Shown here: positions 1,362 to 1,796 of the stretch, in pieces
Layout of the letters: every line of letters begins with the position of its first letter
Position numbering within the stretch: position 1 is the first letter of the stretch
Source: Escherichia coli
GTDB lineage: Bacteria; Pseudomonadota; Gammaproteobacteria; Enterobacterales; Enterobacteriaceae
Length of the DNA stretch: 1,796 nt
Direction: 5' to 3' (one strand)
Assembly (NCBI RefSeq): GCF_003334815.1
Contig: NZ_QOWO01000093.1
Translations under genes and position numbers: made by a program
Notes under the pieces: generated by a model
What the model was told of the DNA's origin: nothing
What the model saw: only the letters and a program-made list of their open reading frames with translations
The model's database searches: none

Positions 1362-1418
1362 AATGTATTTTAGGATGACCTATGTTGAATAGAACCTAAA
1401 ACAAAACAAATATTAATA

Positions 1419-1456
1419 GGGGTCCGCTTGGAAAAGGGAAATTTTCCCACGCTAAG
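1419..1456 (+). repeat. Left 38-bp terminal inverted repeat (Tn3-family type): GGGGTCCGCTTGGAAAAGGGAAATTTTCCCACGCTAAG
   Basis: Direct read. The GGGG start and CACGCTAAG end match the Tn3-family IR ends as I recall them (Tn21/Tn501 subgroup style). Confidence 0.8.
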
Positions 1457-1514
1457 AGAATTGAGTTGAACGAGTGGTTACATCCAGGCCAGCTAACTCA
1501 CTGAACGTAAAGGC

Positions 1515-1604
1515 TGTACGAAATGTTCCGGCCGTCCGATAACCGTTTGGCTTACTTCCGTACATTCCCTTGCGTAGATGTACAGAATTGTACGATTTCG
1601 GACA
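1515..1604. promoter_or_regulatory. Cluster of TGTAC[A/G] core motifs and TGTNCGAAAT / CGTCCGATAA-like half-sites inside the miniature element; possible recombinase (res-like) or other protein-binding site
   Basis: TGTACG at 1515-1520, CGTACA at 1559-1564 (inverted), TGTACA at 1579-1584 and TGTACG at 1589-1594, all within about 80 bp. TGTACGAAAT (1515-1524) is an imperfect inverted match to ATTTCGGACA (1595-1604), and CGTCCGATAA lies at 1533-1542. The function is inferred only. Confidence 0.3.
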
Positions 1605-1666
1605 CCAAAACCGCTGTTGTCCCGACATTCTGGCGATTCCTGAAAGTCCTTTGACTAAAAAATAGT

Positions 1667-1704
1667 CTTAACGTGGTTTATTTTCCGAATTCCAAGCGGA
1701 CCCC
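1667..1704 (-). repeat. Right 38-bp terminal inverted repeat (Tn3-family type); reverse complement GGGGTCCGCTTGGAATTCGGAAAATAAACCACGTTAAG
   Basis: Direct read and reverse complement. The first 15 bp are identical to the left IR. The inner part, GAATTCGGAAAATAAA...ACGTTAAG, resembles Tn21/Tn501-type IRs as recalled. Confidence 0.8.
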
Positions 1705-1796
1705 TATCAGGCCTGCCGTGGGGATTTTGTGGTGCGTCTCGACGGCAGCACCTGTCTGCAGTTATGGAATAAAGAAGGCAGGGTGGTACGCCGGGA

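Follow-up and report, generated by a model that had tools for sequence, protein, structure and literature searches.

A 286-bp Tn3-family miniature element without a target duplication: evidence that its flanks in an I-complex plasmid are secondary deletion junctions

Why does an intact miniature element with Tn3-family ends lie between two flanks that do not repeat each other? The question is raised by a 1,796-bp stretch of Escherichia coli DNA, called the window hereafter at its full length, in which the 5 bp outside a 286-bp element read TAATA on the left (1414-1418) and TATCA on the right (1705-1709). The two are equal at three of five positions and form no direct repeat, as had been pointed out in an earlier, sequence-only reading. 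The window is identical to a segment of RCS85_pI, a plasmid of E. coli ECOR 3 (NZ_LT985321.1, 27213-29008, reverse strand). This I-complex plasmid is conjugative; its relaxase is of the MOBP type and its transfer system of the MPF_I type. Table 1 gives the features of the window, together with the copies of a second miniature element, X, which is described below.

Table 1. Features of the window, in window coordinates, and copies of element X, in the coordinates of their loci.
Feature	Position	Strand	Sequence or remark
Y-family polymerase gene (impB type), 3' end	ORF 4-153		
First array of 8-bp repeats	about 172-256		
parA	381-1007		
Small parB-like gene	1004-1306		
Second array of 8-bp repeats	1310-1360		CTTGTTAT, 8-bp-spaced copies, 3' of parB; last feature of the par locus before the 286-bp element
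AT-rich spacer, 58 bp	1361-1418		ends in TAATA, the left flank
286-bp element	1419-1704	+	
IR-L, 38 bp	1419-1456	+	GGGGTCCGCTTGGAAAAGGGAAATTTTCCCACGCTAAG; GGGG tip, inner end ACGCTAAG; 28/38 against the Tn21 repeat
Candidate res subsite III, half-site	1515-1523	+	TGTACGAAA; colinear with TGTACGAAA upstream of the resolvase gene of the 852-bp sister element
Candidate res subsite II, 32 bp	1533-1564		inverted half-sites CGTCCGATA ... TTCCGTACA; putative, aligns with the 32-bp TATCCGAAA...TTTCGGACA of the sister element
Candidate res subsite I, 26 bp	1579-1604		TGTACAGAA-TTGTACGA-TTTCGGACA; centre 1591/1592
IR-R, 38 bp	1667-1704	-	reverse complement GGGGTCCGCTTGGAATTCGGAAAATAAACCACGTTAAG; nested deletions on the right share its outer tip as their fixed end
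Truncated ORF, 92 bp	1705-1796	+	3' part of a 196-aa ORF, from codon 136
Element X, full copy	L182 3028-3291		
Element X, further copies	L183 2506-2687; L128 2924-3019; L180 2605-2697		

The parA-parB pair is bracketed by the two arrays of 8-bp repeats (TTGTTATC / TTATTATC; window 172-256 and 1310-1360). The second array is much longer in locus L183, which shows that copy number differs between plasmids. Directly upstream of parA stand two perfect palindromes, at 279-301 with arms of 11 nt (TTAACAACTTA / TAAGTTGTTAA) and at 341-371 with arms of 15 nt (ATATTAAGTTGTTAA / TTAACAACTTAATAT); they have the motif AAGTTGTTAA in common and look like operator sites. An Rfam scan of the window gave no match. 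The change of composition that had been described at the left boundary of the element was confirmed, GC content in 100-bp windows being 0.28-0.33 over 1250-1449 and 0.42-0.49 in windows from 1400, over the element and its right flank.

The element is delimited by 38-bp terminal inverted repeats of the Tn3 family, which agree at 30 of 38 positions and have both the GGGG tip and the ACGYTAAG inner end that serve as the criterion for this family. Compared with the repeats of Tn21, IMU and TIME244, the two repeats agree at 24-31 of 38 positions. For IR-R the figure is 30-31/38 with Tn21, TIME244 and IMU, against 20-23/38 with Tn3 and IS101, and it is the Tn21 subgroup that the repeats resemble most. 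The longest ORF within 1419-1704 has 58 aa, and no transposase gene is present. Outside the element, the inverted repeat goes on for 3 bp (ATA/TAT), no more than chance would give. Since the same 286-bp unit with the same tips is found in hundreds of plasmids, in unrelated contexts, the ends of the element are real. The suggestion that it is an incomplete relic of a larger transposon is thus not supported, at least as decay in place: the unit is a discrete, recurring family with both repeats. As judged from its sequence, it appears to be a non-autonomous, res-bearing miniature derivative of a Tn3-family transposon of the Tn21 subgroup, similar to the TIMEs. A mismatch between two unrelated 5-mers is the outcome expected by chance, so that the absence of a duplication means that the two flanks are unrelated DNA, and the origin of each of them can be sought separately.

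On the right, the translation of window positions 1705-1794 corresponds to residues 136-164 of a 196-aa protein (product of L002 3013-3603), with 29 of 29 residues identical. The gene for this protein is intact in pO104_H21 (L002) and in IncI1 plasmids. Compared with pO104_H21, the window lacks exactly 631 bp (L002 2787-3417), namely what remained of an 85-aa ORF together with codons 1-135 of the 196-aa ORF, and the gap opens at the outermost IR-R base. Where the gene is whole, ...GGCATGACG stands immediately before TATCA, and no GGCATGACG occurs on the left side of the element, which makes TATCA native ORF sequence rather than half of a duplication. This bears directly on the proposal of an old canonical insertion whose 5-bp duplication has mutated past recognition. 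The agreement of the flanks at three of five positions could be taken in its favour, but from TATCA onward the DNA is unchanged from the uninterrupted ORF of the relatives, the bases that precede TATCA there are missing from the left side of the element, and the left flank itself belongs to another insertion (see below). The proposal is refuted as it had been worded, and any version of it is to be regarded as extremely improbable.

The junction of the window is one of a series. In pO104_H21, the tip of IR-R joins ATGAG, about 31 nt into the 85-aa ORF, which is intact in IncI1 plasmids. The window-type junction IR-R|TATCA, inside the 196-aa ORF, was found in 39 PLSDB records. In p100 (NZ_CP093069, L187; 12 PLSDB records), the tip joins AGTAA, in backbone that lies beyond yagA and is colinear; the junction sequence is AGTAAGTAAAATATAC..., and it adjoins a proQ/finO-type gene. 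All three junctions fall at the last base of IR-R and reach progressively further into one colinear backbone. No microhomology was evident between the IR-R tip and the far end of the deleted segment at TATCA or at AGTAA. The copies in pO104_H21 and p100 are likewise devoid of a duplication. The p100 element is full, and differs from that of the window only at positions 16-18 and 207, which indicates that the element itself was not remade as its right flank changed. Two PLSDB matches (H349, H350) have the window-type right flank preceded by only the last 5 nt of IR-R (ACCCC|TATCAGG), which suggests further decay of the window-type arrangement.

On the left, the junction between par and IR-L was found in 391 PLSDB records, and in many of those sampled the element is cut off at position 88. 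IncK2/Z plasmids (L128, L180) share this par flank down to TAATA, and in them it is followed by GGGGGTTCTACGCC..., the 286-bp element being absent from that place. This sequence is the left end of X, a different miniature element of 264 bp, with GGGG tips and 32-bp terminal repeats (GGGGTTCTACGCCGGAACCGCCGAAATTTCCG) that agree at 30 of 32 positions and have no TAAG inner motif. In plasmids of the O91:H21 type (L183; seven records), par-TAATA is followed by 182 bp, made of an X fragment and GATCC, and then by IR-L; the right end of that element joins |ATGAA in the 85-aa ORF. Because par-TAATA-X occurs in both groups of plasmids, TAATA is the flank of the insertion of X. As read from these arrangements, the window-type left junction would have arisen by loss of the 182-bp segment exactly up to the IR-L tip. 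The resulting junction, TAATA|GGGG, is common to window-type plasmids and p100. The junction of pO104_H21 lies one base off (TTAAT|GGGG), which may represent either a second, independent event or a later loss of a single base.

A search for the predicted original right junction (IR-R, TAATA, X) gave no contiguous match, and it was this search that revealed the O91:H21-type arrangement and the full copies of X. Further copies of X are present in L134, L162, L164 and L168, and in an IncY-typed plasmid X adjoins a Tn1721 end. In one IncK2/Z plasmid (L128 3030-3290), the truncated fragment of X gives way to the C-terminal portion of a serine recombinase ORF. Among the related plasmids searched, no clean empty-site allele was found, and hence none with the 5-bp duplication that would have contradicted the first reading. 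Taken together, the two sides indicate that neither flank of the window is the original landing site, and that both would be secondary deletion junctions.

Which process could place deletion endpoints at the tips of an element and leave the element whole? Adjacent deletion, that is, intramolecular replicative transposition, is known for the Tn3 family, Mu and IS1: one end is fixed at the terminus of the element, the far ends are nested, the element is kept, and no duplication is made. The mechanism is ordinary for Tn3-family elements. Two of its hallmarks are seen here: the deletions stop precisely where a repeat ends on the outside and spare the element, and they form a nested series with one end fixed. 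A Tn3-family transposase would connect one end of the element with a target close by on the same DNA molecule; the stretch between them would be lost as a circle, and the element would be left intact with one new flank, which never matches as a 5-bp duplication. On the right side such an event would have removed the 631 bp, with its endpoint at the outer tip of IR-R, and on the left side the 182 bp derived from X, with its endpoint at the outer tip of IR-L. A difference from the deletions known for Tn3-family elements, Mu and IS1 is that the 286-bp element has no transposase of its own, so that the enzyme would have to be supplied in trans. A plausible source lies in the same replicon, since RCS85_pI also carries Tn21 with tnpA and tnpR (107-3636) and a Tn1721 end inside the colicin Ia gene. 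We give about even chances to the view that adjacent deletion made the flanks of the window.

Tn21 of RCS85_pI (NZ_LT985321.1 74-18128, loci L184-L186) has no matching duplication either, with TATTA outside its tnpA end and TAATT outside its mer end. The Tn1721 repeat at 24561 of the same record overlaps a colicin Ia-type CDS that is annotated with 1275 nt, versus 1881 nt in L006, and the stretch from par to the start of the record, where Tn21 lies, is heavily rearranged. A composite transposon, bounded by IR-L of the element and the tnpA-end repeat of Tn21, was also considered, since both have TAATA outside in the same sense. It was rejected, because the contiguous empty site that it predicts is absent from PLSDB, and because TAATA next to Tn21 is native backbone on the origin side, found also in other records, NC_002122.1 among them. 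We treat the sharing of TAATA by IR-L and the Tn21 end as a coincidence at an AT-rich preferred target.

Deletions of the same extent could also have formed independently of any transposase, by slippage or microhomology, and have ended at the repeat tips by chance. The left junction lends itself to this explanation: its endpoint is the tip of X, and as the tips of X and IR-L are both GGGG, a deletion by 4-bp microhomology is possible there. Other deletions of the region do ignore the tips, such as the one in the commonest I-complex variant, which is cut at element position 88. Against this, three right junctions and at least one left junction lie exactly on the outermost base of a repeat, which is unexpected for random endpoints, and TTAAT|GGGG of pO104_H21 is one base off the product of the GGGG microhomology. 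Illegitimate deletion is therefore an improbable cause of the flanks as a whole. The repeated placing of junctions on the outermost base argues that a transposase has at some stage acted on the termini, either directly, or through extra copies of the element followed by recombination.

The flanks of the wider family bear on the second of these routes. Full-length copies drawn from plasmids and from a scan of metagenomes gave 24 different pairs of flanks. A 5-bp duplication was found in none of the 24, even when 3 bp of slack was allowed at each end, apart from slack matches in C-runs. This weighs against adjacent deletion, as the family offers no direct evidence of canonical transposition. Moreover, flanks are shuffled among copies: in L176 the left flank is that of ColBM and the right flank that of L142; one left flank is common to L139 and L161, which differ in right tip and right flank; and in L152 the ColBM right flank is paired with a different left flank. 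Such shuffling is what would be seen if two copies in direct orientation, one at par and one in the 196-aa ORF, each with its own duplication, had recombined, by a resolvase at their res-like sites or by homology, so that the DNA separating them was lost and one hybrid copy remained, with its left flank from the par copy and its right flank from the other. This is the main rival of adjacent deletion.

Differences within the element also speak for this two-copy origin. Between the window and the elements of the pO104_H21 and O91 types, 1-2 differences lie left of position 173 and 7-9 right of it (Fisher p about 0.007-0.008), and the switch falls between element positions 67 and 189. Counted by halves, the pO104-type copy departs from the window once on the left and six times on the right, and from L134 only twice on the right. 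For the backbone, divergence on the left amounts to about 1-2.5%; the right-hand figures are 1.8% versus pO104_H21 and 5.2% versus the O91-type L183. As judged from these alignments, the clustering indicates that sequence within the element was exchanged or converted at least once in the lineage of the window, and this is something that simple deletion leaves unexplained.

The third line of evidence comes from the interior of the element. An 852-bp sister mini-element is present in L151 (6448-7299) and in pAPEC-O1-ColBM (NC_009837.1 91209-92060); with at least 80% coverage it occurs in 142 PLSDB records, most of them plasmids of the ColV/ColBM type. It consists, in order, of IR-L, a gene for a 196-aa serine resolvase (Pfam Resolvase 1e-38, HTH_7 9e-11), res, where half-sites occur in pairs upstream of the gene, and the other repeat, and has no transposase gene. 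Its IR-L is 92% identical to that of the 286-bp element, and its final 112 bp, which run from the centre of res site I to the IR-R tip, match positions 175-286 with 97% identity. The two differ in that the sister has a resolvase gene, and in the left half of res site I and subsites II and III. In L151, the stretch homologous to the 286-bp element lies between the start codon of the resolvase and IR-R. The sister is not flanked by a duplication (TATCA / AACTA). That its left flank in L151, TATCA, might be the right-flank locus of the window was considered and rejected, as the upstream bases differ.

Because of this colinearity with the site upstream of the sister resolvase gene, we infer that the interior of the 286-bp element is a res site, with a crossover near 1591/1592. 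The counterpart of subsite I in the sister is TGTTCGAAA-CCGGTCGA-TTTCGGACA, and homology between the two elements begins at the centre of this palindrome-like site. Three further contexts likewise lose homology within element positions 172-177, which makes four hybrid contexts, the centre of subsite I being at 173/174. The motif TGTMCRRAW has four exact matches in the window, all within 1515-1604, versus 0.23 expected, although it was derived after viewing the sequence. No partner half-site was found in the 286-bp element for that of candidate subsite III. Both the colinear res-like region and the loss of homology at 172-177 in the four hybrid contexts are in keeping with recombination between two copies.

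In the lineage of the window itself, several observations are at odds with such recombination. The left junctions predicted for the second copy, at TATCA (...GACGTATCA|IR-L) and at ATGAA (...AGCTATGAA|IR-L), are absent from the 72,556 plasmids of PLSDB. The RCS85_pI replicon holds a single copy of the 286-bp element and no copy of X, and a search of it for the same repeats with matching flanks, as had been proposed, led to no second copy. Window-type and p100-type elements have different right flanks and are nearly identical in both halves, with no hybrid signature. Finally, three separate insertions into the same stretch of backbone would be required. Recombination between two copies is thus a possible origin of the flanks, which we put at clearly less than an even chance. 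For the window, the direct route, by adjacent deletion, is favoured by the near identity of the window and p100 elements in both halves and by the failure to find a two-copy intermediate. Thus, when it had been suggested that the ends were joined by recombination or deletion between two separate elements, the deletion part was borne out, by the 631 bp on the right, the 182 bp on the left and the nested junctions at the IR-R tip, and the part concerning two copies was not.

If the res-like region were functional, the element would be a portable recombination site for resolvases such as that of the sister, a reading that we consider doubtful. Backbone and colicin modules may in that case have been swapped between I-complex, F-type and Col plasmids, and multimer resolution could be another role of the site. 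A portable site would explain the copies at module boundaries, the absence of duplications in all 24 flank combinations and the recurrence of positions 1-206 in F-type and Klebsiella records. It would also offer a concrete route by which modules pass between plasmid families.

The family is widely distributed. In PLSDB, 2162 records match the 286-bp element, and 570 hold at least 80% of its length. Of 5426 complete E. coli genomes, 1364 have a match, many of them truncated copies, and 540 a near-full copy; the places of these matches are plasmid in 1631 cases and chromosomal in 31. Copies were found in I-complex plasmids (just past par), ColV/ColBM plasmids (near cvi or cbi), an IncFII plasmid (next to yacAB) and metagenome contigs. 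The part comprising IR-L and res (positions 1-206) is widespread in sampled F-type and Klebsiella plasmids, R100 among them; truncation at position 206 leaves IR-L and the whole res-like region in place and removes IR-R. In one F-type truncated copy, that of pKPGD4 (L005 2488-2513), a partial copy of the left tip, 13 bp long, stands ahead of the tip proper: GGGGTCCGCTTGA and then GGGGGCCGCTTGG....

Copies stand repeatedly at the edges of colicin modules, in pJNE082640-2 (L130 2501-2786) and in ColBM/ColV plasmids (L003, L004, L131). Its neighbours there are cvi, or cvi on one side and cbi on the other, and in I-complex plasmids it is located in the colicin Ia region, which in the case of the window lies about 1 kb to the right. 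A full copy lies on an 8-kb ColE2-type plasmid, between the colicin E2 operon and a colicin E3-type remnant. Lau and Condie in 1989 reportedly dealt with a 'degenerate transposon-like structure' of ColE9-J, to go by their title, and in view of the copy next to the colicin E2 operon, the 286-bp element may be the structure that this title names.

In L115 there is a full-length relative (75% identity), and in L110 a pair of related repeats. In contigs of Photorhabdus cinerea DSM 19724 (L010-L021), a related 38-bp repeat, identical to IR-L at 34 of 38 positions, lies about 113-127 nt from many contig ends, which indicates that this genome probably holds a multi-copy repeat element with similar termini. 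An exact 15-mer scan of representative genomes for the repeat tips gave mostly chance matches, with real relatives only in some Enterobacterales, and identified no autonomous parent transposon.

The missing duplication around the element of the window is thus best read as the record of later deletions, which would have trimmed the region next to par, rather than as an anomaly of transposition chemistry. The element, whole or partial, is present in about a quarter of complete E. coli genomes, and it is probably overlooked by annotation pipelines and in plasmid comparisons. As its repeat tips mark the rearrangement junctions of I-complex plasmids, they could serve to trace plasmid lineages.

Miniature elements with Tn3-derived inverted repeats are known as TIMEs (2014, PMC4133298; Gomi and Yano 2026, PMC13367494). 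Of the properties that define the class, the 286-bp element has the repeats, a size under about 500 bp, the absence of a transposase gene and an occurrence at several unrelated sites and in several replicons, and it lacks the 5-bp target duplication, in the 24 flank combinations and likewise in the p100 copy. In the literature searched, no paper gave the sequence of its repeats or a description of it. It is apparently a TIME without a name so far, one that is met unusually often in E. coli plasmids and habitually lies at rearrangement junctions. The lack of direct repeats has a precedent among named elements: MITESen1 copies and IMU structures without direct repeats were put down to an insertion and a later deletion between copies (Gomi and Yano 2026, PMC13367494). 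In the same study, named elements were found in 0.06-2.3% of Enterobacteriaceae genomes, a denominator that differs from that of the 1364 of 5426 E. coli genomes given above.

The element was compared with IS101, IMU, MITESen1 and TIME244, with the sequences of Table S2 of PMC13367494. Identity with any of the four was rejected on the alignment of the interiors, where only short, non-significant matches were obtained; significant matches were limited to the repeats, and global scores were low. In other respects, it resembles the named TIMEs: it is short and plasmid-borne, has no long ORF, and ends in Tn3-family repeats of about 38 bp with a GGGG tip. Like IS101 and TIME244, moreover, it appears from its sequence to carry a res site.
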